This document shows positions 1,927-57,173 of a stretch of DNA of 64,000 nucleotides, piece after piece (the stretch's first letter is position 1; every line of letters starts with the position of its first letter). The notes below the pieces were generated by a model, which saw only the letters and a program-made list of their open reading frames with translations, had not been told where the DNA came from and searched no databases. The stretch lies in assembly GCA_020241125.1 (NCBI GenBank), contig GCA_020241125.1_4708.1, one strand, 5' to 3'. The DNA is from a phage. Made by a program: the position numbers and the translations under genes.

Positions 1927-4836
1927 ATGAACGATATAAATAAAGGGCGCGTCGCCCTCGAACGTCAAATGAGCAATAATGACGTTGCGAAGGCACTCAT
2001 GAACAAATTTGTCGCTCCTGCTCCGCAGTCACGTCTTTATAATACACGTGATGCGGAAGGAGCGAACGGTCGTTTCGGGTTAGTTGTTCCCGACCAAATG
2101 ACGATGAACACGGTTACGCGTGCGACCGCGACAAACATCGAGGATAATAAAAACATCCTCGAGCTGTTCCCTGAACTTAAACGCGTGATGCAGATCTATG
2201 TTGCCGCGTTGACGAACCCTAACGATCTTAAGACGGTCGAGATGTTTATCGACAGCGAAGATTTCCCCGGCAGAGTCGCAGAAATCGTTCAGCCGATGAT
2301 CGATACCATCGACACGCATTTTAAGAATATCTATAAAATAAAGACGCTTATCCCTCGTATCATCGAAGACGTCTTCTTTATCAAGGGCAGTTATAACTTC
2401 GTTGTTCTGCCGGAAAGCACGCTCGACCGCGCCATTAATGGTAACGGTCAACTGAAACTTGAAGAATACGGATTTAAAGACAACCATTTTGCAAGTTGGG
2501 GGCTTCTAGGTAACGACAGTCGCAAACGCCACGAAAATCAATTACCTGCGACGGTTTCGATGGAAGATTATTTCTCGGGTGTTAATGAAACCATACCGTA
2601 CGATCCTGTTGTTCGCATAGACAGCATCAAGTTTACCAATACCCTGCTTCGCGATAAGGACGGTAAATTCATTGAAGCGAAGATCGATATTCCGGATATG
2701 GTTACGGTTGTCGATAACCCAGACATCCTCCGCATGCCTATTCTGCATCAACGTCGAGCAGCGACAGCAGTGCAGCGTGCGTTACGCGCAAACACGTTAG
2801 GAGGTAGTGGTTTGGTAACGCTGTCAGGCGATCCGACCCTAACCGCTAACCGACGTGAGCTGTCGCAAGAACAGGTTAACGAGATCTGGAATAAGCTCAA
2901 CATCCAGCGCCACACCAAGGTATCGCCCGTTTACGCGCTGGCAACCCCAGATACGCTTGATCGTCAAAGCGTTGGCCATCCTGGCGTGATGCATGTACCA
3001 CCTGAGGCATTAGAACCCGTACATGCGCCCGGTGATCCTGAGAACCATATCGGGTATTTGGTTCAGTTGGATGAGTTTGGTTATCCAGTACGTTTGGTTG
3101 AAGATGCGGCGTATTACAAGCAGTTGGAAGGTCGGTTGTCGAAGATCACCGCAGATATCGCAGGTACGTCAAGCAACGGCATGGCGAGCGAGATGATTGG
3201 TGCAGCCAAGAACATGATCCAAGGTACGTCATGTAATCAGGTAGACATGTCGGCCTTCGTATCATCGTACGAATCGCTGATGCAACGTTACATTGTCGAA
3301 CGTATCGTTAACGGTTATCTTGGCAGTGCGGTGGAGATCGGTGCGACATCATCGTTTTATCTGTCGATGCTTGCTCGTAGCCTCGCTCACAAGCAGACCC
3401 GTGTTTTGTTTATTCCTCGAGAGATGGTGACTTACATCGCCTATGAATACAACAAATACGGTATCGGTCGTTCGCTGCTTGAAAGTACGAAGATGATCTC
3501 ATCGCAACGAGCCATGCTCATGGTTCAAGAACTGATGGCGAAAATCAAAAGTTCGTTGAACTATACGACGCTAAGCGTAATGCTTGAAGACACCGACAGA
3601 AACCCGGTCGATACCGTCGAACAAGCACTGCATAGTTTCGCTCGTGTCTACCAGTCTGGTTTCCCGTTGGGTGAAACTAACCCGATGGATATCATCAACG
3701 CGTACGAACGAAGCTCGATTCGATTGAAGGTTGAGGGGAATAACCCACGCTTCCCGAAATTGAATACAGACGTCAGTGTTGAGCAGCGTAACTATCAGTC
3801 TCCTGATAATGAGCTGATGGATCGTTACCGTCGTGACCATTTCATGGGCTTGGGTGTGTCTCCGGAGATTATCGATACTTCCTACCAATCTGAATTCGCA
3901 GCTTCTGTGATTACAGCTAACGCGATGCAAGAGAAACAGTTCACGGTTTGTCGTGAGGTGATCACGAATGGGTTATCGGACCACATCAAGAAATATACGG
4001 CATACAGTCCCGTGTTGTTGACGTCGTTACGAAACACGGTTCGTGCGAACATGTCTAAGCTTTCCCAGGCACAATTGAAGCAGCTTTTTGGTAGCGATTT
4101 CGAAAACGGTGTTATCCGTAACGTTAACGCCTATCAGGAGATTGACGACCAATCAGCAACAATGGATCTGGATTACACTAAACCAGAAGTCCAGGAAGTT
4201 ATTGCCGATGCTTATGTGTCCATGTTCTTAAACAGCCTGCGTGTGCGTTTACCGGATAGCAATGCCCGTCGCCTTGAAGATCAGGTACGTGAATATAATC
4301 AGTACAAGGAAGCGATTACTGCGCAACTTGATGATTATTTAACGCCTGATTACGTCATGGGTCTGGGTGGGGTTGATGAAACAACGCTGCAGATGATCCG
4401 CGCATGCATTATTGGTACCGCGATGCGTACGTGGGCAAAAGAGAACAACTTCAATCAGGAGCTGGCTGATCTCTTCAGTCTTGACGATAAGAAGAATGCC
4501 GTGCAAGATTGGAAACGTATGTCCATGGAACATATTGAAGTCATGGGTAAATGCATGGGTGATTTTGCATTGTATATTCAGAATCTGACGAAGAAGATTG
4601 AAGAGAAGATGGGAGCTCAAGCACAGGACGGTAGCGTTTCATCTGATGGTTCGTGGTCATCCGATTCAAGTAGCGATACCGGTTCTTCTGATGACTTCGG
4701 TGGCGGTGACGATTTCGGAGATACCGATTTCGATACCGAAACGATGGAGGAAACCTCAACAGAAGAAACAACCACATCTGAGGAAACGACTACCGACACA
4801 ACGTCAGAAGACGATACTTCAGGTGACATTGTCTAA
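1927..4836 (+). CDS. large hypothetical virion-type protein (969 aa) with acidic Ser/Thr/Asp/Glu-rich C-terminal tail
   Basis: Long ORF; AAGGAG 9 nt upstream of ATG; C-terminal ~70 aa low-complexity (SSDSSSDTGSSDDFGGGDDFGDTDFDTETMEE...); portal-like size but no motif recognised. Confidence 0.8.
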   Translation: MNDINKGRVALERQMSNNDVAKALMNKFVAPAPQSRLYNTRDAEGANGRFGLVVPDQMTMNTVTRATATNIEDNKNILELFPELKRVMQIYVAALTNPNDLKTVEMFIDSEDFPGRVAEIVQPMIDTIDTHFKNIYKIKTLIPRIIEDVFFIKGSYNFVVLPESTLDRAINGNGQLKLEEYGFKDNHFASWGLLGNDSRKRHENQLPATVSMEDYFSGVNETIPYDPVVRIDSIKFTNTLLRDKDGKFIEAKIDIPDMVTVVDNPDILRMPILHQRRAATAVQRALRANTLGGSGLVTLSGDPTLTANRRELSQEQVNEIWNKLNIQRHTKVSPVYALATPDTLDRQSVGHPGVMHVPPEALEPVHAPGDPENHIGYLVQLDEFGYPVRLVEDAAYYKQLEGRLSKITADIAGTSSNGMASEMIGAAKNMIQGTSCNQVDMSAFVSSYESLMQRYIVERIVNGYLGSAVEIGATSSFYLSMLARSLAHKQTRVLFIPREMVTYIAYEYNKYGIGRSLLESTKMISSQRAMLMVQELMAKIKSSLNYTTLSVMLEDTDRNPVDTVEQALHSFARVYQSGFPLGETNPMDIINAYERSSIRLKVEGNNPRFPKLNTDVSVEQRNYQSPDNELMDRYRRDHFMGLGVSPEIIDTSYQSEFAASVITANAMQEKQFTVCREVITNGLSDHIKKYTAYSPVLLTSLRNTVRANMSKLSQAQLKQLFGSDFENGVIRNVNAYQEIDDQSATMDLDYTKPEVQEVIADAYVSMFLNSLRVRLPDSNARRLEDQVREYNQYKEAITAQLDDYLTPDYVMGLGGVDETTLQMIRACIIGTAMRTWAKENNFNQELADLFSLDDKKNAVQDWKRMSMEHIEVMGKCMGDFALYIQNLTKKIEEKMGAQAQDGSVSSDGSWSSDSSSDTGSSDDFGGGDDFGDTDFDTETMEETSTEETTTSEETTTDTTSEDDTSGDIV

Positions 4837-4859
4837 ACGGATGTAAAAAAAAATAACAC

Positions 4860-4908
4860 ATAGTTAACCTTCTCCCCAACCCGATGAGGGAAGGGGAGAA
4901 GGGCTATG
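4860..4908. terminator. GC-rich palindromic hairpin (CATA-/-TATG flanked family), between convergent genes
   Basis: CCTTCTCCCCAACCCGATGAGGGAAGGGGAGAAGG; A9 run just 5' on plus gives a U-tract after the hairpin for minus-strand transcripts. Confidence 0.5.
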
Positions 4909-4922
4909 CGCTATTTAATTTA

Positions 4923-5195
4923 TTACGAGGTTAACCACGATTCAATTGTGGTGAGTTTGCTTCTCAGTACGCGCCAACTAGGGTGTGGTGGGATCACAGC
5001 GCCTTTGTCGATTACGGTTAGCTGAACCTGGTACTTCTGTTGCATACGCGCTACCGTGTCGCTTATCGAGAGGAAAAGCTGGTAACGTTCATATGCCGTC
5101 AGTTCACTGTCCTGTTGAACTGCGTTGGCCGCTAACGTAATTTCGCGTAAGTCCTTTGCATCCACAGAGACGGTAATGAGTTTATATTGACTCAT
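4923..5195 (-). CDS. hypothetical protein (90 aa)
   Basis: ORF with AAGGAA SD 5 nt upstream of ATG. Confidence 0.55.
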   Translation of the reverse strand: MSQYKLITVSVDAKDLREITLAANAVQQDSELTAYERYQLFLSISDTVARMQQKYQVQLTVIDKGAVIPPHPSWRVLRSKLTTIESWLTS

Positions 5196-5214
5196 ACGGT
5201 TTCCTTATCAACTA

Positions 5215-5236
5215 GGGTATTGCAAATACAATACCC
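5215..5236 (-). terminator. intercistronic hairpin (not of the main family)
   Basis: GGGTATTG-CAAATA-CAATACCC, 8-bp stem between 5257 gene stop and 4923 gene start. Confidence 0.4.
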
Positions 5237-5256
5237 ACCGTCGGACGATAAGTTAA

Positions 5257-7849: not shown

Positions 7850-9646
7850 TCAATCGATTATGTCGTGATCGTTAATTTCTACAATTTCTTCATCGAATCG
7901 ACCGACGTCTTTCTTCAAGCCTGCATTGGTTGCTGCAACGTCATTTGCAATTTGTGGGGTAATGATTAACCGACCGCGCTCATCGATAGGTGCGTACATA
8001 CTGAACTTCTGACGTCCGGTTGGTTCGGAGTGTGGAAGATTCAGATAGCTTGCACAGAACGGGATGGAACCACTAACCAAACGACTCTCGTCAGCCAATG
8101 CAGCACCGCCTGCGTTTTGGCTCTGGAGAACAACATGCGTGCTCACTTTGAACAGCATGCAATCACCTGGTGACTGAATCGATGTTGCCACTTTCTCACG
8201 TTTATCACGATTGCTCTGGATATTGAGAATCGCTTCCGTTGCAACTTGATTTCGCAACGCCTTCTGTACATCGCGATTGGTCATCTCTTTACGGTTGTTC
8301 TGTCGTTTACCACGTTCTGTGGTTTTAAGATGGAACCCCAGTTTAAAGATGCTCTTACGCACATCCTCCATGACATATTCCAACACCATCAATTCCTTAC
8401 CGAACATCGTCGTGGTATCAACACGACTCATTTCGATAGTGACATTGTCAATCAGATACGCCATAAATTCGTAGAAGTCGTCGCAAGGAATATTTTCCTG
8501 TTTGAACTTCTTCTGCTGAATCTCGTCAACGTAAAGATCGAGACTGTCGATGTGGTGATTTACATCACGTAACAAACGCGCATCCGCGTTGTTGTTATTA
8601 AAGATAATCAAACCGAGTAATGTACGCCAATGGTCTGGCGCATTCGCGAACTCCTCAACCGGATAGTCTTCCGGAAAACGATCGTAATAACGGTCGATGA
8701 GATACAAGAATGCACCGACAAGGCCAAGAACAATACGTTCCGTGCCTCCGCGTCTTACAGCAATTTGAATATCAGGATGTTTGTAACGTACAGCGCTAGC
8801 GCTACGGCTTTTACCGCTTTTGCTGATACTAAAGCCTTTAGGAATAACCCCCATGGTGCGATAGATTACCCATTGGTCACGCGGAAAATCGCGTTCAGCA
8901 AGGTTCCGTCCGGTTACGGCTTCGACACCTGCAAAACGTCGGAAACACTCACCCACCCCATACTTCGCAAAGAGATAGTGACCCAGTGTGGTTACGCTGG
9001 TGTGGTTGATGTTGTCACCGTTCACTTTACTTTGTTTAGTAAGATGGTAGATTTGCGACCAGGGTAACGACAGGTAATGACGATAATCGATACCGGTCGG
9101 TGTATCATTGCTCAGGAACTGATACGGTGTACGTTTAACCGTGATTTTGTCACGCGGAAGCATGATGAACGCCATGTCTTTCGTGTAACTGATTACCGGG
9201 TCAGCGAGCACTGCACTGAGAATGAAGTTCGCACCACGTAGACGCATTTTACCACCCTGACCTACCGCGGGTAATAGGAGAGGATGTCGGATAATGCAGT
9301 AGTCCTTTCCGGGTTCACGACGGTCACCTGATTCCATCGCGCCGTACCAGCGGAATTCTAGCATCACCATAAACACATCGGATGGCGCAAGGTCGAAGGT
9401 CAGCTTACCGCTATCCTTCCCTTTGGTTTTCTTTCCTCCGCTTAAGTAGTGGAACTGTTCGCGGGCCATACAGCGACGCAGGCCATGATACACCAGATCC
9501 TTAGGTAAACTATCTTTGCTGTTCCGCCAAAGACGATCAACATAGGACTCAACATCTTGCATCTTATCGACGACGATGTTGCGTGCTATCTTCTCGTTCA
9601 TCTTCGGTGCAAGCCCAGCGACAGCTTTGCAGAATCTAGGATCCAT
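7850..9646 (-). CDS. hypothetical protein (598 aa)
   Basis: ORF-track start is GTG at 9649; ATG at 9646 has AAGGAG 6 nt upstream. Confidence 0.8.
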   Translation of the reverse strand: MDPRFCKAVAGLAPKMNEKIARNIVVDKMQDVESYVDRLWRNSKDSLPKDLVYHGLRRCMAREQFHYLSGGKKTKGKDSGKLTFDLAPSDVFMVMLEFRWYGAMESGDRREPGKDYCIIRHPLLLPAVGQGGKMRLRGANFILSAVLADPVISYTKDMAFIMLPRDKITVKRTPYQFLSNDTPTGIDYRHYLSLPWSQIYHLTKQSKVNGDNINHTSVTTLGHYLFAKYGVGECFRRFAGVEAVTGRNLAERDFPRDQWVIYRTMGVIPKGFSISKSGKSRSASAVRYKHPDIQIAVRRGGTERIVLGLVGAFLYLIDRYYDRFPEDYPVEEFANAPDHWRTLLGLIIFNNNNADARLLRDVNHHIDSLDLYVDEIQQKKFKQENIPCDDFYEFMAYLIDNVTIEMSRVDTTTMFGKELMVLEYVMEDVRKSIFKLGFHLKTTERGKRQNNRKEMTNRDVQKALRNQVATEAILNIQSNRDKREKVATSIQSPGDCMLFKVSTHVVLQSQNAGGAALADESRLVSGSIPFCASYLNLPHSEPTGRQKFSMYAPIDERGRLIITPQIANDVAATNAGLKKDVGRFDEEIVEINDHDIID

Positions 9647-9685
9647 CACACACTCCTTTCAGAAAGTTGCTTAAGCAGATTAAAG

Positions 9686-11122
9686 TTACTTTTTCGATGA
9701 CACTTTCTCAAGAATCTTGAAAAAGGTCATACCTATACCGACAACGGCCGCGGTTATGCTCGCAGCGGCTTTCCAAACATCGACGTTACGTTGACGTCGC
9801 GCTTCTTCCGCTTCACGTTGTCTTTTTGCCTCTTCATCACGTCGACGTATCTCAGCAGCAAACTCGTCGTGCTTACGTTTGGATTCTTCGTCTCGACGAC
9901 GAAGTTCAGCGACGAATTCTTCATGTTTGCGTTTAGCCTCGTCGTCACGACGTTTTAAATCAGCTTGATAATCTTCGTGTATTTGTCTACGTAGATCATC
10001 TTGACGCTTCATTTCGGCTTGGTGTTGTTCCATCCTACGTTTTTGTTCGTCTTTAAGCTGATCGAGTTCGGCTTTATGTTGTTCATCACGCAGCTTTGCG
10101 TCGGCGCGATGCGCCTCATGCATCTGTGCGATAACTGCCTTGTGTTCATCCGCCATACGTCGCATTTCAGCCATCACCCCTTTAAGGGTTTCTTCTGATG
10201 CCTTACGTTCGTAGCTACGTTGGTCGAAATCATTTTTGTAGGCTTCTTTTTGGATGGGGTCGCGCCAATGCAATGCCGATTCACGTGTCGGAAAAACATT
10301 GTACTTCCACATCTCTTTTTCCAAATCTTCGACCGGTACGAAGATGGAGTCATTATTCCCGAAGGTAACCAACATACCTGGCGCGCCTGCTCCATTCGTT
10401 GGTTTTATTTCGAACGCTTTCCCCAACACGTTAACCCATAAGCTATACGGATTATGAAAGTCGGGCGGCGTCCAATGGATAGTGAGTTGCGTTCCGAGAA
10501 TCCGGAAACCCTCTGTTTTTCCCGTCAAGCTCCGCGCGCACGTTGCGATGTAGGGGTGATCAATCCCTTTCGTAACGTGGTCTGCGCTTTTGTATTCTCC
10601 TTTAACTTTTACGATTGCCACGTTGATTTGCGCGACATAAGCGGGTTGATTAAAGTTCAGCGTGTTGAGGTCAATTTGACATATCTCATCCAGCGTATCG
10701 TACCAGTCTTGCTGGTCTAATAGACGCGGCATTTTCTCAGCGTTAACAATACGACGGATATGCGGTTTCCTTATCGCGTAACCTGTACCGTTTTTAACAC
10801 GGAGTATATCCCGACGTCTACCCGCGTAGACGAAGTTTCTGAATGCACCATTCGCATTAGATACGTCATGGCTGTCAACTATTACAGGACTACGAAATTT
10901 TGAACGTCGTACGATCCTGAATGTATTGCCGTCCTCAACCCTACCAGGAATGTACTGGAACATATTGTCGGAGGTGATAACCAACACGGTATGGCCAGAT
11001 TCATTAATACATGCCCATCCTAATTCCAGGTCATATAACGGTTCAGCATAACCGTCAATGCGATAAGCGTGCGTACCATCCCACGGTTCGAACGCGGTAT
11101 CACATATTGGCATGGAGGGCAT
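9686..11122 (-). CDS. tail-anchored coiled-coil protein with tandem 19-aa charged repeats and C-terminal transmembrane helix (478 aa)
   Basis: ORF-track start is TTG at 11128; ATG at 11122 has GGAGG 6 nt upstream; C-terminus ...RRRDEEAKRKHEEFVAELRRRDEESKRKHDEFAAEIRRRDEEAKRQ... then AAASITAAVVGIGMTFFKIL. Confidence 0.8.
   Translation of the reverse strand: MPSMPICDTAFEPWDGTHAYRIDGYAEPLYDLELGWACINESGHTVLVITSDNMFQYIPGRVEDGNTFRIVRRSKFRSPVIVDSHDVSNANGAFRNFVYAGRRRDILRVKNGTGYAIRKPHIRRIVNAEKMPRLLDQQDWYDTLDEICQIDLNTLNFNQPAYVAQINVAIVKVKGEYKSADHVTKGIDHPYIATCARSLTGKTEGFRILGTQLTIHWTPPDFHNPYSLWVNVLGKAFEIKPTNGAGAPGMLVTFGNNDSIFVPVEDLEKEMWKYNVFPTRESALHWRDPIQKEAYKNDFDQRSYERKASEETLKGVMAEMRRMADEHKAVIAQMHEAHRADAKLRDEQHKAELDQLKDEQKRRMEQHQAEMKRQDDLRRQIHEDYQADLKRRDDEAKRKHEEFVAELRRRDEESKRKHDEFAAEIRRRDEEAKRQREAEEARRQRNVDVWKAAASITAAVVGIGMTFFKILEKVSSKK
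9790..9960 (-). repeat. in-frame tandem repeat (~57-bp unit, about 3 copies) inside 9686..11122
   Basis: Repeated CGTCGTC...GAATTCTTCATGTTTGCGTTT units encoding RRRDEE(A/S)KRKH(E/D)EF(V/A)AE(L/I). Confidence 0.7.
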
Positions 11123-11272
11123 CGTCAACCTCCATCAGATTGAAAACTATCACGCATAATACATTTCCCTTTTCTTGTTCTTATCGAGCCGACAGCCGAC
11201 GGTTTCAGCATCGTTCCTAGCGCGAGAACGACCTTACGTGTTGTCTATGCCTTATTCATCGCAGGCGTCTGT

Positions 11273-11296
11273 CACCTAGGTAATGTAAGCGTCAAA
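11273..11296 (-). promoter_or_regulatory. conserved ~31-bp motif, copy 1 (candidate phage promoter)
   Basis: CACCTAGGTAATGTAAGCGTCAAA on plus; lies between hairpin 11322..11370 and start of 9686..11122. Confidence 0.4.
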
Positions 11297-11321
11297 TTTT
11301 TTCTATTCGCAACAATAAACG

Positions 11322-11370
11322 GCATAGAAACCTCCCCCAACCCTTGCGGGCTGAGGGAGGCTGACTTATG
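11322..11370. terminator. GC-rich palindromic hairpin family member downstream of putative MCP gene
   Basis: GGCATAGAAA-CCTCCCCCAACCCTTGCGGGCTGAGGGAGG-CTGACTTATG. Confidence 0.5.
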
Positions 11371-11459
11371 TATCACGGTGCCGGATGAATGTCCGGTGCA
11401 ATGAAACCATCCGCAACGTTGTCGTCAAGAATATCATCCAACGAAGCAGCTACGGTAGT

Positions 11460-13682
11460 TCAGTTAGTCTGAACAGGCAGCTTGATGTTTTCAGTGTAGA
11501 CCTTACGCAGGTTCACAACGTTAATCAGACCCAGCAGCGGGCAGTTGTTAACGAAGCGGCAGCGCGGCTGAACCATGGTTTCTTTAGAAACCTGACCGTT
11601 ACGGGTAACCTGAGCAACAGATACCAGTTCCGGTACATACAGGAACATACCGAAGGTCAGCGGATCCGGAGAACCCTGGATACCACGAGACAGGGTCACG
11701 AAGATCTTATCGCGCAGCATGACGTTCGGGTTATCTACAACTACGAAGTTGAAGCTTACACCAACGGTACGGAAATCACCATCGGTCTGCAGGAACTGCG
11801 GGATGTAGTTGTCAGTTGCTACTACGCAACGCGGTTTCTCATCAGCGTTGGAAGACAGCAGCTGCAGAGCTGGCTGATAACCAGACTCGGAGTACATGCG
11901 GTATGCCATCTCACGAATCACGTTCATGATCGCAGCAGACACTTCAGCACGACGTTCTGCAGTGGTGGTACCCTGAACAGATTTCTCCAGGTCCAGATTG
12001 ATTTCTTCGAACCACGGACGGATCAGGTAACGACCGAAACCTTCGATCTGGATGTCACCGAACTGACGGAAGCGAGAGGTCGCAACCGCTTTCAGTGCGT
12101 CTTTGTAGCTGAACAGTTTCTCAACCATCAGGTTGTCGAAACGTGCGTTAGCAGCTTGGATCAGAACGTCCAGGTCAGCAGCGTTTTCTTCCCAATCCAG
12201 CGGACGAGGAATGGAGAACGGAGCCAGCAGGCCGATTGCGTAACGTTCTTGCTTCATGTTGAAGTCAAGGTGCTTACCGCGCTCACGACGGTTGCTGTTG
12301 TTACGGCGGATACGCAGTTCGTAACCAACCAGTTTGAAGCTCAGGTCTTCAGCCAGTTGTTTGAACTCTTCGCTCTTACGCGGTTGTTCGATGTTGTCCT
12401 GATCAACCAGGCGATACAGTTCAGCGTTAGCGCCGTTAACACGCAGACCGGCTTTCTCTACGTTGGAAGAACCGTAAACTTCGATCGCCAGCTGAGCAGC
12501 AGATTTCGCATCGATGATGTCCTGCAGCGCTTCAGCTTTCGCGCCTTTAACGTCTTTGGTGTTCTCATCAACGAAGATGGAGTGGGTGTCGAACGCCAGG
12601 GTCATTTTGCGGAAGTCGCCTTCCAGGGATTTCTGGAAACCGTTGGTGATCAGACCAGATACGTCGAACGGTACGTAAGAGGTTTTGCTGTGCTTGGTAG
12701 ATTTGATTTCCACCAGGATTTTGGTCAGCGTGATCTGGGCGTCCAGCGCGTCGGTGTTGTCGCTGTAACCGTTAGCCAGGATGCTATCGTCTTCAGCAAT
12801 ACCGATCATGTCGATCAGTTTATCAACAGCCAGGTAAGACGTTTTGTAAGTTACGCCTTTAATTTCGATGTCGCGCGGAGCAACGATAGCTTTGTCAACG
12901 AAGTACTGTGCGTTAGCATCGTCAGCACGATAGATCGGATGCAGATCGGTCACGTCGTTGGACAGAACGTCGTTGTACATGAACGCATCCAGCAGCGGAC
13001 GACGTACCCAATCAGCCGGAGTACCGTCAGCGTTACGACGCAGGTGGTTGAACACCAGCGGACGACGGAAAGATACGTCGTAACCGATCTGGTTCGGAGC
13101 CAGAACGATGGTGTTGTACAGTTCGTTACCCATGCGGCTCAGACGAGAAGCCTTCACGTTGAACACAACGGAGTACGGCATCATGTCACGCAGTTCTTTC
13201 TGGTCGTAGGACAGCTGAACCAGTTCTTCAGATTCGCAACCGCAGGAATCAGCAGCCATCATGACGAAGTTAGAGCTGTCAACTTCACGGCCAGACGGAG
13301 TGGTGCTGATGTTCATGGAACGTGCTTGTTTAGCATATTCTACCGGGTTACCATGAGCCAGCATGATCAGTGCTGCTGCACGAGCCTGCTGTGCGTTCAT
13401 GGTGAACAGCTGTTCTTCAATACGCTGCTTCTCTTCCGGAGTGGTGGTTTCGAAGCCCAGCATGGACAGAACCGGTTCTTCGGCTTTACGGATGTCGCTG
13501 CTGAAGCTCTTAACATCCATTTCGTTAACCAGTTTGTCCATGGATTTGAAATCAACCTTAGAAGCAGATTCCATAGACAGGAAGGTGTTCTCCAGACCTT
13601 TGTCTGCTGGTTTGCTACCATTAGCGGTCAGGAACTGGCGAGTGGCCGCGACCTGTTGGCTAAGAAGGGTTTTATCATTCAT
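11460..13682 (-). CDS. putative major capsid protein (740 aa; size comparable to phiKZ-type MCP)
   Basis: Strong host-optimal codon usage suggesting high expression; AAGGA SD 8 nt upstream of ATG; functional call from size and codon usage only. Confidence 0.5.
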   Translation of the reverse strand: MNDKTLLSQQVAATRQFLTANGSKPADKGLENTFLSMESASKVDFKSMDKLVNEMDVKSFSSDIRKAEEPVLSMLGFETTTPEEKQRIEEQLFTMNAQQARAAALIMLAHGNPVEYAKQARSMNISTTPSGREVDSSNFVMMAADSCGCESEELVQLSYDQKELRDMMPYSVVFNVKASRLSRMGNELYNTIVLAPNQIGYDVSFRRPLVFNHLRRNADGTPADWVRRPLLDAFMYNDVLSNDVTDLHPIYRADDANAQYFVDKAIVAPRDIEIKGVTYKTSYLAVDKLIDMIGIAEDDSILANGYSDNTDALDAQITLTKILVEIKSTKHSKTSYVPFDVSGLITNGFQKSLEGDFRKMTLAFDTHSIFVDENTKDVKGAKAEALQDIIDAKSAAQLAIEVYGSSNVEKAGLRVNGANAELYRLVDQDNIEQPRKSEEFKQLAEDLSFKLVGYELRIRRNNSNRRERGKHLDFNMKQERYAIGLLAPFSIPRPLDWEENAADLDVLIQAANARFDNLMVEKLFSYKDALKAVATSRFRQFGDIQIEGFGRYLIRPWFEEINLDLEKSVQGTTTAERRAEVSAAIMNVIREMAYRMYSESGYQPALQLLSSNADEKPRCVVATDNYIPQFLQTDGDFRTVGVSFNFVVVDNPNVMLRDKIFVTLSRGIQGSPDPLTFGMFLYVPELVSVAQVTRNGQVSKETMVQPRCRFVNNCPLLGLINVVNLRKVYTENIKLPVQTN

Positions 13683-13831
13683 TGAAAGTATCCTTTACAG
13701 AATTAACTTATATAAGTCGGTCGATAGACCATAGCGTACACGCGTGCATGCGCCACTATAGTATCAGTAAACACTTACCGTTATTGAGGTCGTGATACAA
13801 CACTAAAAATGCCGCATAACTTTTCCCTACG

Positions 13832-17629: not shown

Positions 17630-18532
17630 TTACTTAGTCTTCGAGTTACAAGGACTGACATGTTGTTGTACTCGTTGAATCGTATCGTAGTACGGGTTAG
17701 ATTGGTTGAACATGCTGTTGTGTGGATGATAGCCGTATGGCGCATTTTGCCTTGTTGATGAGAAACCTTGTTGAGAAGGACGATTTGAATTAACCGCGAG
17801 TACGTAGTAAACCAAATTTTGACGGTCGAACGTTCCTTCGTTTTTGAAGGTGTCGGCGTAGGTGTTTATCGCTGGAGCGAGTCTATCACCATCGGCGGTA
17901 ATAATTGTACCGTCTGGGTAAACTTCACGAACGACGCACCATGTTCCGATAAGAACGTCTTTGGGCGGCGTATTGCCGTATCCGGTTGTAACGGTAAGGT
18001 AAGTATCGAACCCTTCAGAACAACAAGGATGACGATAGATAGGTCCTGTCATTTCCGTTCTATCGGTATCGTCGCATTTCTCTATCGAGAGCGATGGTGT
18101 GTCGGTTTTGAAATTGTCAAATTCTTTCTTTAAGTCGATTACAGGTTCTTTCGTATAGTACTTCTTGATTGCTTTGACGTAAAGATCAGGAACGGTTGTC
18201 AGCATTCCGTTATACCTGATTCTCAGGTTTTCGAGTAATCCAAAGATACTCGCGCATGCTTGTTCGCGAGGTTTTGTAAGATAAGAGATCCCCCCAGGAA
18301 CGCTGGGATCTTTGAGAAAGAAGATTGCGTTATTGTCGTTGTGCAGTGCGTTGAAGAAAACGATTGATTCGATATATACGGAGCATAGGCTGTCGTTGGC
18401 GTCGTCAGATAACACCCAGATGCACTCATCGGTCGTCTTGTTTAAAAGTTCTGTTTTGTCCACCAAACGTTGTTTCATTGCGAGGAAATGTGCCTGTTGT
18501 TCAGCGGATAATTCACGATAAATAGTGGTCAT
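17630..18532 (-). CDS. hypothetical protein, paralog A of an HPxC/YPDG pair (300 aa)
   Basis: Start trimmed to ATG 18532 (AAGGAG 6 nt upstream); shares PIYxHPxC, DxYLTxTxG, GxWxxxREVYPDGxIxT with 18618..19391. Confidence 0.75.
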   Translation of the reverse strand: MTTIYRELSAEQQAHFLAMKQRLVDKTELLNKTTDECIWVLSDDANDSLCSVYIESIVFFNALHNDNNAIFFLKDPSVPGGISYLTKPREQACASIFGLLENLRIRYNGMLTTVPDLYVKAIKKYYTKEPVIDLKKEFDNFKTDTPSLSIEKCDDTDRTEMTGPIYRHPCCSEGFDTYLTVTTGYGNTPPKDVLIGTWCVVREVYPDGTIITADGDRLAPAINTYADTFKNEGTFDRQNLVYYVLAVNSNRPSQQGFSSTRQNAPYGYHPHNSMFNQSNPYYDTIQRVQQHVSPCNSKTK

Positions 18533-18617
18533 GTTGAGCTCCTTGATTACGATAAGGATGATTGCGGTTTTGTGATGCTGGTAGGGCCCTAAACAAAGGA
18601 GCCCTACCAATATTGGG

Positions 18618-19391: not shown

Positions 19392-19447
19392 GTTTGTATC
19401 CTCGGCTATTAAGAGAAATTTACAGTGATAACAGTAACCGTTGTTAT

Positions 19448-19478
19448 CACCTAGGTAATGTAGTCGCGAAATAAACTG
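19448..19478 (-). promoter_or_regulatory. conserved ~31-bp motif, copy 2 (candidate phage promoter)
   Basis: CACCTAGGTAATGTAGTCGCGAAATAAACTG; between hairpin 19490..19531 and ATG 19391. Confidence 0.45.
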
Positions 19479-19489
19479 GGTTAGACAGT

Positions 19490-19531
19490 ATATGACCCTC
19501 TCCCAACCCGTAAGGGAAGGGAGAGGGAATA
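19490..19531. terminator. GC-rich palindromic hairpin family member
   Basis: CCCTCTCCCAACCCGTAAGGGAAGGGAGAGGG directly after stop of 19532..20899. Confidence 0.5.
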
Positions 19532-20899
19532 TTAAACGGTTGGACGAACAGTATTGTCTTTTTCTGGTGCAATCCATAACGTGACTGTACCATGGCATGT
19601 CCACTGCGGTTCACGCACAGAAGAACCTGCCATTGTAACAGCGCAATCGGTACGCATGATAACCCCGTATGCTTCGCAGAGATTGTTATCCTGCATCCAC
19701 ACAACTTTAGCGGGCATGCCAGGATACAACAAATCCATGTTTGCGTATTCCCACACCAACTGCATCGTTCTACCGCGTAATCCGGCAGTATTGCTTAATT
19801 CACGCCATCGGTTATCGGTTACGCGTCCCATCCCTTTCGCCACTTTCACGTTATCGCTACGTTCTTCAGTTACGTACTCGCTAACGTTTACGGTACGACT
19901 GATGATCGTATCACCCCCTTTTGATAATGTCATTCCCTGACTCATCTGACTTGCCGAAACAAAACGCCCACCCGCATTACCTAACAACGAAGCCGCGTTA
20001 TTGATGTCGCTTACCGACGCCCCTCTCGTACACGCAATTTCCACGTATTTGTCACGATTGATCCAGGTCTTGTCCATGCCCGGAAACATATCGGCAGGAT
20101 AGTTGTAAAAGATCGCCGTGCGCCGACCGTCAGAGAAACGGGTTTCGTCGTATAAGGGGTAGATATACAGATACGGGGATTGATAATAACAACCGACGTC
20201 AGCTGAATAAATACCGACCTGGTTCTGTATTTTATCTACGAGATCCATCGCATTGGTACCGTGTGGAAGAATAAGCAACTTGAATGGGTTGTCGTTATTC
20301 GGTGCAACAATATCCACACCCTGCATTTTGAATCCGGTGTCAGCTTCAACCGCAGAAAGTATCTTGCTGAATTCAAGTCGCAGTACATCCAGCACTTTCG
20401 ACCCAGTATAGTTCTCACCGGTTTCTGATTGCATGAAGCTTTCAAGAACAGGATCGAACAGTTGAAATTGAAGATCGACCATTTGTTCGTAGTCTTTCTT
20501 CGAAGAATCGGTTGCGGTACGTTCGTCGGTAGCGGACATACGACTGTCTACGGTTGTTAAACAAACCGCTCGGTAGACGTAAGCTTGTGCGGCATCGTCT
20601 ACGGTTTGGCGTTGTCCGCGCATCAGGCTGTACGCCTGCACGATGATGCGCATTTTAAGTTGTTGTTGGTACGGTAGAATGTATTTTCCGTAACTGCCGG
20701 GCGGGAACTTTACAGAGATATAGAGTTCATCTCCAGCGTTACGTTCATAGTCTCGATACGTGTGGACTTGAGTCACTAAAGGAACAGACACCGTCATTGA
20801 CGGCGTGATTAATTCCGCGGTGACTTTATACGCAACAGCAACTGCTTCCTGCGCAAATGTACCGATATACCGTCCTAACGGCGTCTGTTTGTAATCCAT
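19532..20899 (-). CDS. hypothetical virion-type protein (455 aa)
   Basis: ORF; stop of upstream gene 2 nt before ATG. Confidence 0.8.
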   Translation of the reverse strand: MDYKQTPLGRYIGTFAQEAVAVAYKVTAELITPSMTVSVPLVTQVHTYRDYERNAGDELYISVKFPPGSYGKYILPYQQQLKMRIIVQAYSLMRGQRQTVDDAAQAYVYRAVCLTTVDSRMSATDERTATDSSKKDYEQMVDLQFQLFDPVLESFMQSETGENYTGSKVLDVLRLEFSKILSAVEADTGFKMQGVDIVAPNNDNPFKLLILPHGTNAMDLVDKIQNQVGIYSADVGCYYQSPYLYIYPLYDETRFSDGRRTAIFYNYPADMFPGMDKTWINRDKYVEIACTRGASVSDINNAASLLGNAGGRFVSASQMSQGMTLSKGGDTIISRTVNVSEYVTEERSDNVKVAKGMGRVTDNRWRELSNTAGLRGRTMQLVWEYANMDLLYPGMPAKVVWMQDNNLCEAYGVIMRTDCAVTMAGSSVREPQWTCHGTVTLWIAPEKDNTVRPTV

Positions 20900-20901
20900 G
20901 T

Positions 20902-21507
20902 TTAACGACCCCGTTGCTGTTGTTGAATGATGAATTCTTCGATCTTCGTACCACGGAATTCGCTGTGACGAACCGCTTGCAGTTGCTCTTCAACGGTTGG
21001 GCCTGCATTGAGACCACCACGACGTGCGCGGTTGATGCCGATTTTACGGCGCTGACCGATTTCACGTAAACGTGAAGATAATCCGCTCATTTCGGTTGGG
21101 TCTTTAATGCGACCGCGTGCAACGTTCCACAGACCACCCATGAACTCTTCGAGGATACGGCTGGCTTCGAGAGACGGTACGCGCGCGTTAGGGTCGTTTT
21201 CGAGATTGTATTTAACGTATTCCGTATGTTCCAGAAGAAGCATGAACATCTTCATGGCGTTCACGTCAGGATTTGCAATACGCATAGGAACACCACGAGA
21301 ATGTTTTTCAGCAGCCTGCGGTACGGTAAGCTGTGCGGGCACCTCTTCGTTCATGGCCATATCGTCGATTTCTGCAACCCCTGAAGAGTAGACGCCGCTG
21401 ACCTCATTGGTGTAATTGTCCACCATGAATTTACGGGGAATCCAGAATTCGAATTTACGTTCAAATAGACGTTTGGTTGGGGTACCTTTAACGTGTTGTA
21501 GACTCAT
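20902..21507 (-). CDS. hypothetical protein (201 aa)
   Basis: ORF; ATGA start/stop overlap with upstream gene. Confidence 0.75.
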   Translation of the reverse strand: MSLQHVKGTPTKRLFERKFEFWIPRKFMVDNYTNEVSGVYSSGVAEIDDMAMNEEVPAQLTVPQAAEKHSRGVPMRIANPDVNAMKMFMLLLEHTEYVKYNLENDPNARVPSLEASRILEEFMGGLWNVARGRIKDPTEMSGLSSRLREIGQRRKIGINRARRGGLNAGPTVEEQLQAVRHSEFRGTKIEEFIIQQQQRGR

Positions 21508-49399: not shown

Positions 49400-51151
49400 A
49401 TGAGCGAACAAGAACGAAAACCTAAGAAGAAACTGCTCGGTATTCAATGTCGACACATCAGCTATAACGAAGCGAACGATGGCAGCAAGAACGACCTCAT
49501 GATCGCAAAAGAGATCATGTTCTTCGATGATAATACGCAAGCGACGAACCTTCGCTTCTTCGAGAATTACAAACGTCCGTTTTGGGTGACGGTAGAGAGT
49601 AAACGTAAGAACAAATATAAAAAGGAAAGCGAGAAGCTCTCGCATGTGCGTCGCTACGATGTCCGCCAAAGCGAACTGGTTGAAAAGATCAGCTCGGTAC
49701 TTTATAAAAGACGTGCTGACGATAACACCCGTTTACAGCAGCTTGCACGGAGTCCATACCTCTATGGAACGGACGTTAGCGCCAGCTGTTATTTAAAAAC
49801 CCAGTACAACACAAAATGGCCGGAATACGTCGATAAATTACCCGCTTCCATTGCCTGTTTCGATATCGAAACCGACGTTGTCCACGGACACGGTAAGATC
49901 GTTTGTATGTCTATTACAATGGGATACAATGCGATACTTTGCTATACCAAGGACTTCGTTGGTCATATTCCGAATGCCATTGAGAAAACCCATGAGAAGA
50001 TTCGATATTACCTGGCCGAACGTCTGAATACCAAAGAAGATCCCCACGCATTCGAAAAATATCAGTACGATGTTCGAATCGTAGAAAGCCCGGCACAAGC
50101 GGTCATCCAATGCATGCAGAAGGTTCACGAATGGCAGCCGGATTATCTCCTTGGCTGGAATATCGCGTTCGATATTCCGCGCATGCTCCAGGCACTGAAC
50201 GAGGAAGGGTATCGTCCCGAGGATGTTTTCTCCGATCCCCGTATACCACCTAAATATCGTATTGCTCGCTGGGTACCACCGAAGACCGACAAGGTATCTG
50301 CTTCAGGTCGTAAAACCAACCTTACCCTTGAGCAAACCTGGCCGATGTTTTATACGATGGCTACGTATCAGGTTATGGATGCGATGTGTGGCTATAAGTT
50401 CGTTCGTTTAGGAAGACCGGATGAAGGACGCTATTCACTCGATGCGGTGTTAGAGCGAAATAAATGCCATACGAAATTAAAAGCTATTCCTGGTACAGAG
50501 GGGTTCACGGAGCTTGCCTGGCACGAAGAGATGCAAACGAACCATCAAATCGACTACGGCGTATATAACCTTTGGGATAACCAGGGTATTGAGGCGTTGG
50601 ACCAGAAAACAAAAGACTATTCGATGACCATCCCTATCCGTTTAGCGGCGTCGGATTTGAAAGATTTCAGTTCTAACCCTAAACGTATCTGCGATAAACT
50701 TTTCTTCGTTTATCTTAACCGTGGGGAAGTCATGGGATGTACCGCTGACGACATGACCCAGGAAGAAGATAAGTGGGTTATCTCACGAGCTGGACATATC
50801 GTCACATTACCATGCGATCTCATGGCTGACAACGGCATTCATCTCTTCTGGGATATGCCGAACCTGAGAAGTTATATCCGTCTATTCGTTGCAGACCTTG
50901 ACATTAGCAGTTCATACCCGAATGGGCAGATCCTGTTGAATCTATCCAGAGCGTGTGTTTTTCGCGAGCTCTCACGCATTGAGGGCGTCTCTGACTATCA
51001 ATTCAGGAAGTTAGGTATCAACTTTATTACCGGAGGTAAAACGAACGCTGTAGACTTCTGTAGAATCGTTTATAAAGCACCATCGATGTTTGAACTTTTA
51101 GAACATTTCGATGCAACGCGTCCAAAAGAGGAAGCGCGGACCATCGAATGA
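49400..51151 (+). CDS. family-B DNA polymerase N-terminal fragment: 3'-5' exonuclease domain plus polymerase motif A (583 aa)
   Basis: Exo I ACFDIETD, Exo II YLLGWNIAFDIPRML, Exo III YSLDAVLER, motif A DISSSYPN, degenerate motif B-like KLGINFITGG; ORF ends before any motif C (YGDTDS). Confidence 0.75.
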   Translation: MSEQERKPKKKLLGIQCRHISYNEANDGSKNDLMIAKEIMFFDDNTQATNLRFFENYKRPFWVTVESKRKNKYKKESEKLSHVRRYDVRQSELVEKISSVLYKRRADDNTRLQQLARSPYLYGTDVSASCYLKTQYNTKWPEYVDKLPASIACFDIETDVVHGHGKIVCMSITMGYNAILCYTKDFVGHIPNAIEKTHEKIRYYLAERLNTKEDPHAFEKYQYDVRIVESPAQAVIQCMQKVHEWQPDYLLGWNIAFDIPRMLQALNEEGYRPEDVFSDPRIPPKYRIARWVPPKTDKVSASGRKTNLTLEQTWPMFYTMATYQVMDAMCGYKFVRLGRPDEGRYSLDAVLERNKCHTKLKAIPGTEGFTELAWHEEMQTNHQIDYGVYNLWDNQGIEALDQKTKDYSMTIPIRLAASDLKDFSSNPKRICDKLFFVYLNRGEVMGCTADDMTQEEDKWVISRAGHIVTLPCDLMADNGIHLFWDMPNLRSYIRLFVADLDISSSYPNGQILLNLSRACVFRELSRIEGVSDYQFRKLGINFITGGKTNAVDFCRIVYKAPSMFELLEHFDATRPKEEARTIE

Positions 51152-56597: not shown

Positions 56598-56665
56598 CTT
56601 GACATCCTTTTATATTGGATTGGTTGCAATTGTCTTAAATAGATGATAAGATATTTTGCTCTTAT

Positions 56666-56696
56666 CACTAAGGTAATGTAGTCGCGAAATAAACTG
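56666..56696 (-). promoter_or_regulatory. conserved ~31-bp motif, copy 3 (candidate phage promoter)
   Basis: CACTAAGGTAATGTAGTCGCGAAATAAACTG; between hairpin 56719..56770 and ATG 56597. Confidence 0.45.
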
Positions 56697-56718
56697 CGTT
56701 AACACGAAATAAAAAACA

Positions 56719-56770
56719 GCATAGAACCCTCCTCCCACATCCTTCAAGAGGACGGTGGGAAGAGGGAGAG
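56719..56770. terminator. GC-rich palindromic hairpin family member
   Basis: CAGCATAGAA-CCCTCCTCCCACATCCTTCAAGAGGACGGTGGGAAGAGGGAG. Confidence 0.45.
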
Positions 56771-56771
56771 A

Positions 56772-57173
56772 TTAAATGTCGTGGACGGCAATGCCGTTTA
56801 ACCAGCAATACAGCTTAACGCGACAGGAATACCGCTTCGTTGCGGCAACCATTTCATCGCGTAAACGCTGGTATATTTCATCCTGGTGTTCACGATCAAT
56901 GGGGTAATCAGCCCAACATTCGATCATGACGTCACCATTCGTCAGAATCGTCGTACGCATCCTGTCCTGGATACGGCGGTCTTTCCCGGCATTAGGGAAA
57001 TACATTCCTTCAGTACGAATAAGGTCGCCGCAAGGCATGACTAACCATTCGTTCGTTTTGCCGGTATTCTTATAATCCATTACAGCTTGCATTGCGGTGT
57101 CAACGCTAAAAGAAACATAATTCCAAACGGATGTCCAACGATAGATTGCGGGTTGTTCGAGTGTTTCGTTCAT
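56772..57173 (-). CDS. hypothetical protein (133 aa)
   Basis: ORF. Confidence 0.65.
   Translation of the reverse strand: MNETLEQPAIYRWTSVWNYVSFSVDTAMQAVMDYKNTGKTNEWLVMPCGDLIRTEGMYFPNAGKDRRIQDRMRTTILTNGDVMIECWADYPIDREHQDEIYQRLRDEMVAATKRYSCRVKLYCWLNGIAVHDI

Follow-up and report, generated by a model that had tools for sequence, protein, structure and literature searches.

Capsid proteins extended by stop codon readthrough are a known kind of protein, with examples in Qbeta and in the luteoviruses. Some double-stranded DNA (dsDNA) phages also make a minor, C-terminally extended form of their major capsid protein (MCP), by -1 or +1 frameshifting, as in gene 10A/10B of T7 and in the capsids of Listeria phages. 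In Qbeta, the coat gene ends in UGA, and the occasional insertion of tryptophan at this codon yields the C-terminally extended minor capsid subunit A1, whose translation begins at the coat protein's own start codon (PMC8067240). Here we describe the gap between the MCP gene and the following gene, gp040, in a stretch of 64,000 nucleotides (nt) of phage DNA (assembly GCA_020241125.1, contig GCA_020241125.1_4708.1), which we call the window. Positions 9600-13800 of the window are 98.9% identical (megablast) to Escherichia phage vB_EcoM_Goslar, a nucleus-forming jumbo phage of E. coli that belongs to the Chimalliviridae. The MCP of Goslar was identified as gp41 by cryo-electron microscopy (preprint 10.64898/2026.04.21.720040).

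As in Qbeta, the capsid gene here ends in a conserved UGA, and a conserved open reading frame (ORF) follows in frame. Unlike Qbeta, a small RNA phage in which the extension folds into a domain of nearly 200 residues, this is a jumbo phage with 237 kb of dsDNA, and its putative extension is a tail of only 26-30 residues that mimics the tail of another virion protein. The T7 and Listeria phage products differ in another way, as they depend on frameshifting. The present extension continues in frame 0 past a stop codon, so the simplest way to reach it is readthrough. We found no paper on capsid readthrough in chimalliviruses in a partial coverage of the literature.

Because the MCP gene and gp040 both lie on the minus strand, the elements of the gap must be read on that strand. 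The gap then has four parts: an extension behind the capsid stop, a terminator, an early promoter, and the leader of gp040 (Table 1). We think it probable that it is a composite of this kind, with a UGA-readthrough extension of the capsid protein, a terminator of the phiKZ type, a promoter for early transcription, and a leader that is not under constraint. A sequence-only reading of the window had described the gap as structured, non-coding, 330 bp long (11129-11459), and the longest in the window. The features that it listed are present, but the position that it gave for one stem-loop and the words "structured" and "non-coding" do not fully stand. The gap runs from 11123 to 11459 (337 nt), directly up to the ATG of gp040 at 11122. 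It is indeed the longest, although only because a 90-amino-acid ORF (4923..5195, a homologue of gp037) breaks up a space of 420 nt (4837-5256). By our analysis, the first 84 nt of the gap (11376-11459) are not non-coding, as they score as coding in the frame of the capsid gene; the conserved extension was overlooked because the entire gap had been taken as non-coding.

The coding signal was measured as log-odds under Goslar codon usage. The extension scores +12.2 bits in the capsid frame, versus -15.9 and -29.5 bits in the other frames. Just 0.015% of 13,308 intergenic windows and none of 20,000 shuffles reach +12.2 bits, and real coding windows of 84 nt average 8.3 bits. Across the 179 Goslar genes that have a gap downstream, the capsid gene has the top-scoring post-stop extension (the runner-up has 6.0 bits), and it is the sole coding-like post-stop extension in the Goslar genome. 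The position of the terminator fits as well: its distance is 99 nt from the capsid stop and 12 nt from the second in-frame TGA, compared with a median of about 13 nt across the genome. We also compared ten Goslar-like genomes, from IMG/VR, metagenomes, and one Salmonella assembly. The capsid TGA is invariant in all ten, the extension contains neither indels nor new stops, and the last 15 codons vary at only 2 of 45 sites (P=0.0015). A pattern of exclusively synonymous changes (3 of 3 substitutions among four genomes) was not upheld in the ten genomes. The Goslar genes as a whole end in TAA (175), TGA (60), or TAG (12).

We then sampled the 3' ends of the capsid genes of 11 cultured relatives. 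In six genera of Pseudomonas phages (phiKZ/fnug, PhiPA3, PA1C, Psa21, 201phi2-1, and Phabio), the capsid gene also stops at TGA, and 26-30 codons follow in frame. The post-stop peptide has the consensus xGKGxFRYLEDGTxRYLEDGxARRLE. Its mean pairwise amino acid identity is 57%, with 95 synonymous codon-pair differences (for example, Gly as GGA, GGT, GGC, or GGG, and Arg as CGT, CGG, or AGA), and all of its indels are of whole codons. On these alignments, the pattern in the Pseudomonas phages is the comparative signature expected of a translated readthrough extension. No such ORF was found in the five sampled genomes whose capsid gene stops at TAA (Deimos-Minion, SA002, Eowyn, SPN3US, and a metagenomic genome, L014). 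All seven lineages have A or G directly after the capsid UGA. Separately, in Ralstonia phage RP31 (1616-1663 of our sequence L025), an A comes after the TGA that ends the capsid gene, and a 15-codon ORF continues in frame (RIGNTSPDGFNEFGA), in which DGF resembles the Goslar tail. RP31 may be a third lineage with a putative readthrough tail.

The extension also resembles a protein of the same virion. In Goslar, it is similar to the C-terminal tail of gp023 (...LATVLADNVADGFVKPTVSVVG), with 9 of 13 residues identical (tblastn); 13 of 3000 shuffles score as well. The local alignment score is 55, versus 11-17 for foreign tails. As the DNA identity is only 32/63, the likeness is at the protein level. 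In phiKZ, the extension matches the C-terminal tail of gp143 (...IRLLENGAARYLENGQIRYLES) at 11 of 12 residues (E=6e-8). Both gp023 and gp143 are short members of the DUF7941 family. Similarly, the gp143 homologues of PhiPA3, 201phi2-1, Phabio, and Psa21 each have a tail that is matched by the extension of the same phage. In all six phages tested, the pair from a single phage has a local score of 40-63 (shuffle p<=0.0005). Extensions and tails from the same clade score 21-73; across clades (Goslar versus Pseudomonas phages) the scores are 11-19, which is the noise level. Two unrelated motifs are thus each common to the extension and the DUF7941 tail within one lineage, and by this comparison the capsid extension and the DUF7941 tail co-evolve within each lineage.

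These results bear on the idea that the gap is purely regulatory, with the 84 nt being the untranslated and decaying relic of a longer capsid gene or of the 3' end of a deleted DUF7941 gene. A relic would be consistent with the neutral N-terminal half of the extension, with a ratio of nonsynonymous to synonymous rates (dN/dS) near 0.6 in the Goslar clade, and with its absence from the distant relative L014 and the sampled phages with TAA. Also, phiKZ has the DUF7941 genes gp126 and gp127 near its capsid gene, which makes a deletion relic conceivable. However, an open in-frame ORF behind a conserved TGA persists in seven genera, with amino acid identity, synonymous changes, and whole-codon indels as described above; the C-terminal half is conserved in Goslar-like genomes while the adjacent leader is neutral; and a relic would not track the DUF7941 tail of its own lineage. 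We consider a relic very unlikely. Another idea is that a free peptide of 22 residues is made from its own start codon, TTG at 11441-11439, and acts as a soluble mimic that caps or regulates the growth of DUF7941 filaments. The gp023-like motif starts at this very TTG, and two relatives have GGAG 9 nt upstream of the codon. But a Shine-Dalgarno sequence is missing there in the window and in most relatives, and the extensions of the Pseudomonas phages have no conserved start codon. Instead, their conservation begins at the first codon past the TGA (xGKG), and the frame and the TGA are kept together with the capsid gene. We give this idea little credence.

From comparative sequence evidence, we infer that the UGA is read through. 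By analogy with Qbeta, a few percent of ribosomes might read the capsid UGA as a sense codon, using the near-cognate tryptophan transfer RNA (tRNA). The product would be a minor capsid protein with a 29-residue tail that copies the C-terminal tail of gp023.

Several points weigh against a translated extension. In the Goslar clade, the first 13 codons evolve neutrally, and substitutions across the whole extension are about 8 nonsynonymous to 4 synonymous. Constraint in that clade is thus limited to the C-terminal half, which also holds a small hairpin; because this hairpin is invariant in the 10 genomes, it gives no information from covariation. An RNA structure that would stimulate readthrough is not supported, as the long hairpin predicted directly behind the UGA (11460-11405) is broken in two relatives, with the loss of three outer pairs. 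A tRNA scan found no suppressor tRNA among the encoded genes. A profile hidden Markov model of the DUF7941 linker, built without gp023, finds neither the extension nor the tail of gp023 itself. Finally, the six Pseudomonas phages form one clade, so there are few independent data points for the association between TGA and the extension. There was no match to a selenocysteine insertion sequence (SECIS) or to any other Rfam family behind the UGA, and no Pfam match for the extension peptides. A search of a protein database with the C-terminus of the capsid protein plus the extension returned just 2 proteins, neither of which has the tail, and a scan of genome contigs likewise gave no match.

What the tail might do is suggested by a model for the DUF7941 proteins (Goslar gp22 and gp23; phiKZ gp126, gp127, and gp143). 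AlphaFold models predict that these proteins form head-to-tail filaments, each protomer docking on the next through a disordered segment that follows its N-terminal domain, and short DUF7941 proteins are very abundant, with about 2140 copies of gp23 per Goslar virion (10.64898/2026.04.21.720040). The extension shares its sequence motif with the C-terminal tail of the short DUF7941 protein. Because docking is predicted to occur through the segment after the N-terminal domain, the extended MCP would probably offer a docking site on the capsid for DUF7941 filaments. In the preprint, by contrast, the peripheral baseplate is where the filaments are anchored, and the capsid protein goes unmentioned; docking on a capsid tail is suggested here by sequence similarity. 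A tail on the MCP is sterically plausible, since the C-terminal arm of the capsid protein is a beta-barrel at the centre of the hexon and since a C-terminal fusion to green fluorescent protein still localises as capsids do. In its full form, the proposal is that programmed UGA readthrough occurs in the lineages of Goslar, phiKZ, PhiPA3, 201phi2-1, Phabio, Psa21, and PA1C, and that the tail mimics the DUF7941 docking peptide, emerges at the centre of the hexon, and anchors or primes the "fibre cloud" of DUF7941. We put this forward tentatively, as a serious possibility that falls somewhat short of an even chance.

The second part of the gap is a hairpin that belongs to a family represented far more often than chance would allow: the window contains 12 of its loci, and Goslar has about 30. 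In Goslar, almost all of these hairpins lie a few nucleotides past gene ends, often between convergent genes. The terminator motif of phiKZ, BCCYCCCCHWWDGGGRRGGBYTTATKYYGT, was defined on mapped RNA 3' ends (PMC10914365) and also occurs in 201phi2-1 (PMC11512511); in both phages, the 3' ends were mapped by ONT-cappable-seq (PMC10914365, PMC11512511). Like that motif, the Goslar family has a GC-rich hairpin with a pyrimidine arm and a purine arm, a short loop, and TTATKYYGT, just past genes. In the gap, the hairpin is GC-rich and has a loop of 4 nt between a 5' arm rich in pyrimidines and a 3' arm rich in purines; it comes just after a gene end and is oriented in the sense direction. The sequence after the stem is TTTCTATGCCGT, in which two extra bases precede TATGCCGT, a match to TATKYYGT. 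The differences are that the Goslar stems are longer (13-14 bp) and often have an internal AA/AA or TT/TT mismatch, that 4 nt separate the stem from TATG in the window copy versus 1-2 nt, and that the Goslar copies are known by their sequence while the 3' ends in the other phages are mapped.

A covariance model trained on 30 other Goslar terminators, with the window copy excluded, scores 11312-11370 at 34.7 bits on the minus strand (E=4.8e-8) and at 27.0 bits on the plus strand, and the capsid-sense strand outscores the antisense strand in relatives too. The ten Goslar-like genomes contain four one-sided substitutions in the stem, yet all 13 pairs are kept, through G-U pairs, in the minus-strand RNA only. 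TATG lies within 11 nt of the stem in 29 of 41 Goslar instances of the family, versus a background of 2.2%; the 13-mer GGBYTTATKYYGT alone is weakly enriched (7 matches versus 2.9 expected). By sequence and predicted fold, the hairpin and TATGCCGT are a member of the phiKZ-type family of conserved intrinsic terminators. One point against this is that a simple scan for canonical terminators did not call the hairpin, which is because its T-run is not adjacent to the stem. More broadly, scans for sigma-70 promoters and canonical terminators found nothing in the gap, which is no surprise in a phage with polymerases of its own. The hairpin and TATGCCGT, 12 nt past the second stop, would end the abundant late transcript of the capsid gene.

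The TATG past the hairpin (11326-11323 on the gene strand) could instead be a late promoter that restarts transcription for gp040, as the core of the phiKZ late promoter is TATG (T-3ATG+1) (PMC4666361). However, TATG is found beside the family's hairpins on either strand, including hairpins between convergent genes, which have no gene downstream in the same direction, and it is contained in the published terminator motif (PMC10914365). We therefore rejected this candidate and assign the box to the terminator; that it is a late promoter is highly improbable.

The third part resembles the early promoters of phiKZ-like phages, which read TATATTAC in phiKZ, ...BTATATTACDWHDGTG in 201phi2-1, and ...TTTCARRYAKATATTATYWAAGTG in N1M2 and OBP (PMC7058600, PMC7598289). 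The motif TAYATTACYTNNNTGA occurs 3 times in the window, versus 0.19 expected. Goslar has 14 strong copies, all of which are intergenic and on the gene strand, including copies upstream of the chimallin gene, chmA, and of an RNA polymerase gene. Their consensus (A-tract, TTTCACG, TAYATTACYT, NNN, TGA) agrees with the early-promoter consensus of N1M2, OBP, 201phi2-1, EL, and phiKZ (compared with the table in PMC7058600). As in those phages, the consensus is extended and AT-rich, with an ATTAC core and a GTG downstream, and lies upstream of early operons. The copy in the gap reads AAAAAATTTGACGCTTACATTACCTAGGTGA, with TACATTACCTAGGTGA preceded by AAAAAATTTGACGC; in contrast to the other phages, its core is TACATTAC rather than TATATTAC, a variant that is found in 5 of the 14 Goslar copies. 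Only 3 of its 37 sites vary among relatives (P=0.027). Judging from the motif, we predict a transcription start near 11273. For comparison, the start site of chmA was mapped by RNA-seq at 5 min to at most 91 nt from the ATG. In the 11 cultured relatives, the capsid gene is always followed by a hairpin with a TTATG-type terminator box, and in nearly all of them a promoter of the TATATTAC type comes next. The terminator and promoter types are already known, and the copies in the gap are further members.

The other two promoter copies in the window (19447-19540 and 56665-56775, minus strand) are each preceded within 30-50 nt by a terminator of the same family. A terminator followed by an early promoter is thus a recurring cassette and not a peculiarity of the capsid locus. 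The sequence-only reading had proposed just such a pair, a terminator for the capsid transcript and a promoter for the next gene, and the covariance model, the phiKZ terminator motif, and the early-promoter consensus all support it. Its structural elements can also be found: the arms of the small CCGGA/TCCGG hairpin (11381-11385 and 11392-11396); the palindromic hairpin of the family, with its stem at 11331-11360 and flanked by CATA at 11323-11326 and TATG at 11367-11370; and a copy of its "31-bp" repeated motif, at 11271-11308. A fourth stem-loop, GTTCCTAGCGCGAGAACG, exists but lies at 11213-11230, 5 nt away from where it had been placed (11208-11225).

The promoter heads an operon of gp040 and, 36 nt later, gp039, whose phiKZ homologue encodes a beta-like subunit of the non-virion RNA polymerase. 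In phiKZ, the subunits of this polymerase are early gene products, and the gene order here is the same as that of phiKZ gp120-121-122-123. The promoter, 40 nt beyond the terminator, would serve the injected virion RNA polymerase and restart transcription, so that early synthesis of gp040 and gp039 would not depend on the late capsid gene. Such a module is biologically sensible, as it would end the heavy late transcript of the capsid gene and give the polymerase gene an early start of its own. Searches for gp040 outside the Goslar clade (tblastn, IMG/VR, Pfam, PHROGs, and PDB) found no homologue, and the gene that follows the capsid gene in L014 is unrelated. The protein has a globular N-terminal part, a coiled coil, about 130 residues of charged repeats (RRRDEExKRKHxEFxAE), and a C-terminal hydrophobic helix, AAASITAAVVGIGMTFF. 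In its sequence, it resembles a tail-anchored membrane protein that may be expressed early.

The last ~150 nt of the gap would be an unconstrained leader up to the ribosome-binding site of gp040. In a comparison of nine genomes, 18.9% of the columns in the leader vary, versus 21.7% of the 4-fold degenerate sites in the capsid gene. We also checked the claim of structure by fold prediction. It holds for the 148-nt trailer of the capsid gene in the capsid sense, which folds at -60 kcal/mol (z=-4.47 versus shuffles), and it fails for the gp040 leader (z=+0.56) and for the plus strand (z=-0.62). The leader evolves neutrally and is not detectably structured. In particular, the stem-loop at 11213-11230 was rejected as a functional element because relatives have AA-to-GG changes in it and an insertion of 51 nt in its loop, and because the leader around it is neutral.

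The sequence-only reading had also raised the possibility that the region encodes a small RNA, from the leader or from the 3' trailer. The trailer does fold better than shuffles, and candidate RNAs derived from leaders were reported in phiKZ (PMC10914365). But most of the fold signal in the trailer is due to the terminator, and its first predicted hairpin is broken in relatives. The leader lacks a fold signal and an internal terminator match, diverges neutrally, and carries the 51-nt insertion in one relative. An Rfam scan of the gap identified no family (the best hits had E>=1 and were far under the gathering scores), and a scan for tRNAs and transfer-messenger RNAs (tmRNAs) found none in the gap. 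A small RNA is extremely unlikely. A micro-ORF of 17 amino acids (ATG at 11324, with its Shine-Dalgarno sequence inside a terminator arm) was also rejected, as a 1-nt deletion shifts its frame in one relative.

Table 1. Features of the gap behind the major capsid protein gene and of its flanking genes (window coordinates)
Feature	Position	Strand	Evidence or remark
Major capsid protein (MCP) gene, 740 aa (amino acids), homologue of Goslar gp41	11460..13682	-	Pfam PF25620 PhiKZ_MCP, E=5e-218; RefSeq annotation
MCP stop codon TGA	11462-11460	-	
In-frame extension of 28 codons, TTVAASLDDILDDNVADGFIAPDIHPAP, proposed readthrough tail	11376..11459	-	Codon usage, conservation
Extension core LDDILDDNVADGFIAP, similar to the C-terminal tail of Goslar gp023	11394..11441	-	tblastn
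Small hairpin CCGGA-CATTCA-TCCGG, within the last extension codons	11381..11396	-	Sequence
Second in-frame stop codon TGA	11375-11373	-	
Putative terminator stem-loop CCTCCCTCAGCCC-GCAA-GGGTTGGGGGAGG, 13 bp with 2 G-U pairs	11331..11360	-	All pairs form only in minus-strand RNA
TATGCCGT box 3' of the terminator stem, with TATG at 11326-11323	11319..11326	-	Resembles TTATKYYGT of the phiKZ motif
Predicted early (virion RNA polymerase) promoter: A-tract, TTTGACGC, TACATTAC (11287-11280), CTAGGTGA	11272..11308	-	
gp040 5' leader, with no detectable conserved element	11134..11271	-	Includes the stem-loop at 11213-11230
Shine-Dalgarno sequence GGAGG of gp040	11133-11129	-	Sequence
gp040 start codon ATG	11122-11120	-	Sequence; RefSeq start
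gp040	9686..11122	-	RefSeq start
gp039, next gene of the operon after gp040; homologue of PHIKZ123 (a beta-like subunit of the non-virion RNA polymerase)	7850..9649	-	PDB 7ogp_E, E=2.9e-40; phrog_2943

Several other observations concern the same kinds of elements. In Goslar, the gap between chmA and a downstream RNA polymerase gene (170911-171002; 20911-21002 of our sequence L005, minus strand) contains a purine-first hairpin, GGGAGGGAGGG-CAAC-CTCCCTCCC, followed by TTATACG, and no early-promoter motif was found in it. The preprint reports a start site for this polymerase gene (10.64898/2026.04.21.720040), and the RNA end upstream of the gene may come from processing or from another type of promoter. 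Directly downstream of the promoter copy at 19447-19462, the window has two ORFs (17630..18610 and 18618..~19390, both on the minus strand) with no counterpart in Goslar. At this slot, Goslar has only the doubtful gp047, of 62 amino acids, which overlaps the promoter, lies directly against the terminator, and is unlikely to be a gene. The slot behind this promoter looks like a variable site for accessory genes. The 51-nt insertion in the leader is at positions 3183-3233 of our sequence L022 (a contig of ERZ1026852), near window position 11221. It contains two hairpins, CCTTCTTGA-TATCG-TCAAGAAGG and TGACGC-AAA-GCGTCA, and may be a small mobile or duplicated element.

Two observations concern other coding regions. 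First, an ORF of 766 amino acids runs antisense over the entire capsid gene (11385..13685, plus strand). Nothing that we saw indicates a real gene, and we regarded this ORF as a side effect of the codon bias of the capsid gene. Second, the DNA polymerase gene is a single uninterrupted ORF of 583 amino acids in the window (49400..51151, plus strand), and it is split in Goslar, with residues 1-499 at 79690-81186 and residues 499-583 at 82946-83200. The intervening ~1.76 kb contains gp069, a gene for a NUMOD/HNH endonuclease, so this insertion in Goslar, absent from the window phage, is presumably an intron.

Overall, the terminator and the promoter should be useful for annotating Goslar-like genomes, as the RefSeq record marks neither at this site, and together they would explain how the gene for an RNA polymerase subunit is expressed early although it lies behind the strongest late gene. 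The extension would illustrate that heuristics based on the longest intergenic gap can conceal recoded coding sequence. A conserved readthrough tail on the capsid protein that mimics the docking tail of a fibre would be new in dsDNA jumbo phages. If the proposal is correct, chimalliviruses carry an unannotated second isoform of the capsid protein, conserved from phages of E. coli to those of Pseudomonas, and they would provide the first description of programmed readthrough among dsDNA jumbo phages. A capsid UGA that is leaky by design would mean that the C-terminus at the centre of the hexon naturally tolerates an extension, which would be relevant to display and engineering. The proposal would also locate the attachment of the abundant fibres. 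The 2026 structure of Goslar raised the question of where and how thousands of DUF7941 copies attach, and the mimicry of the tail offers a testable answer.

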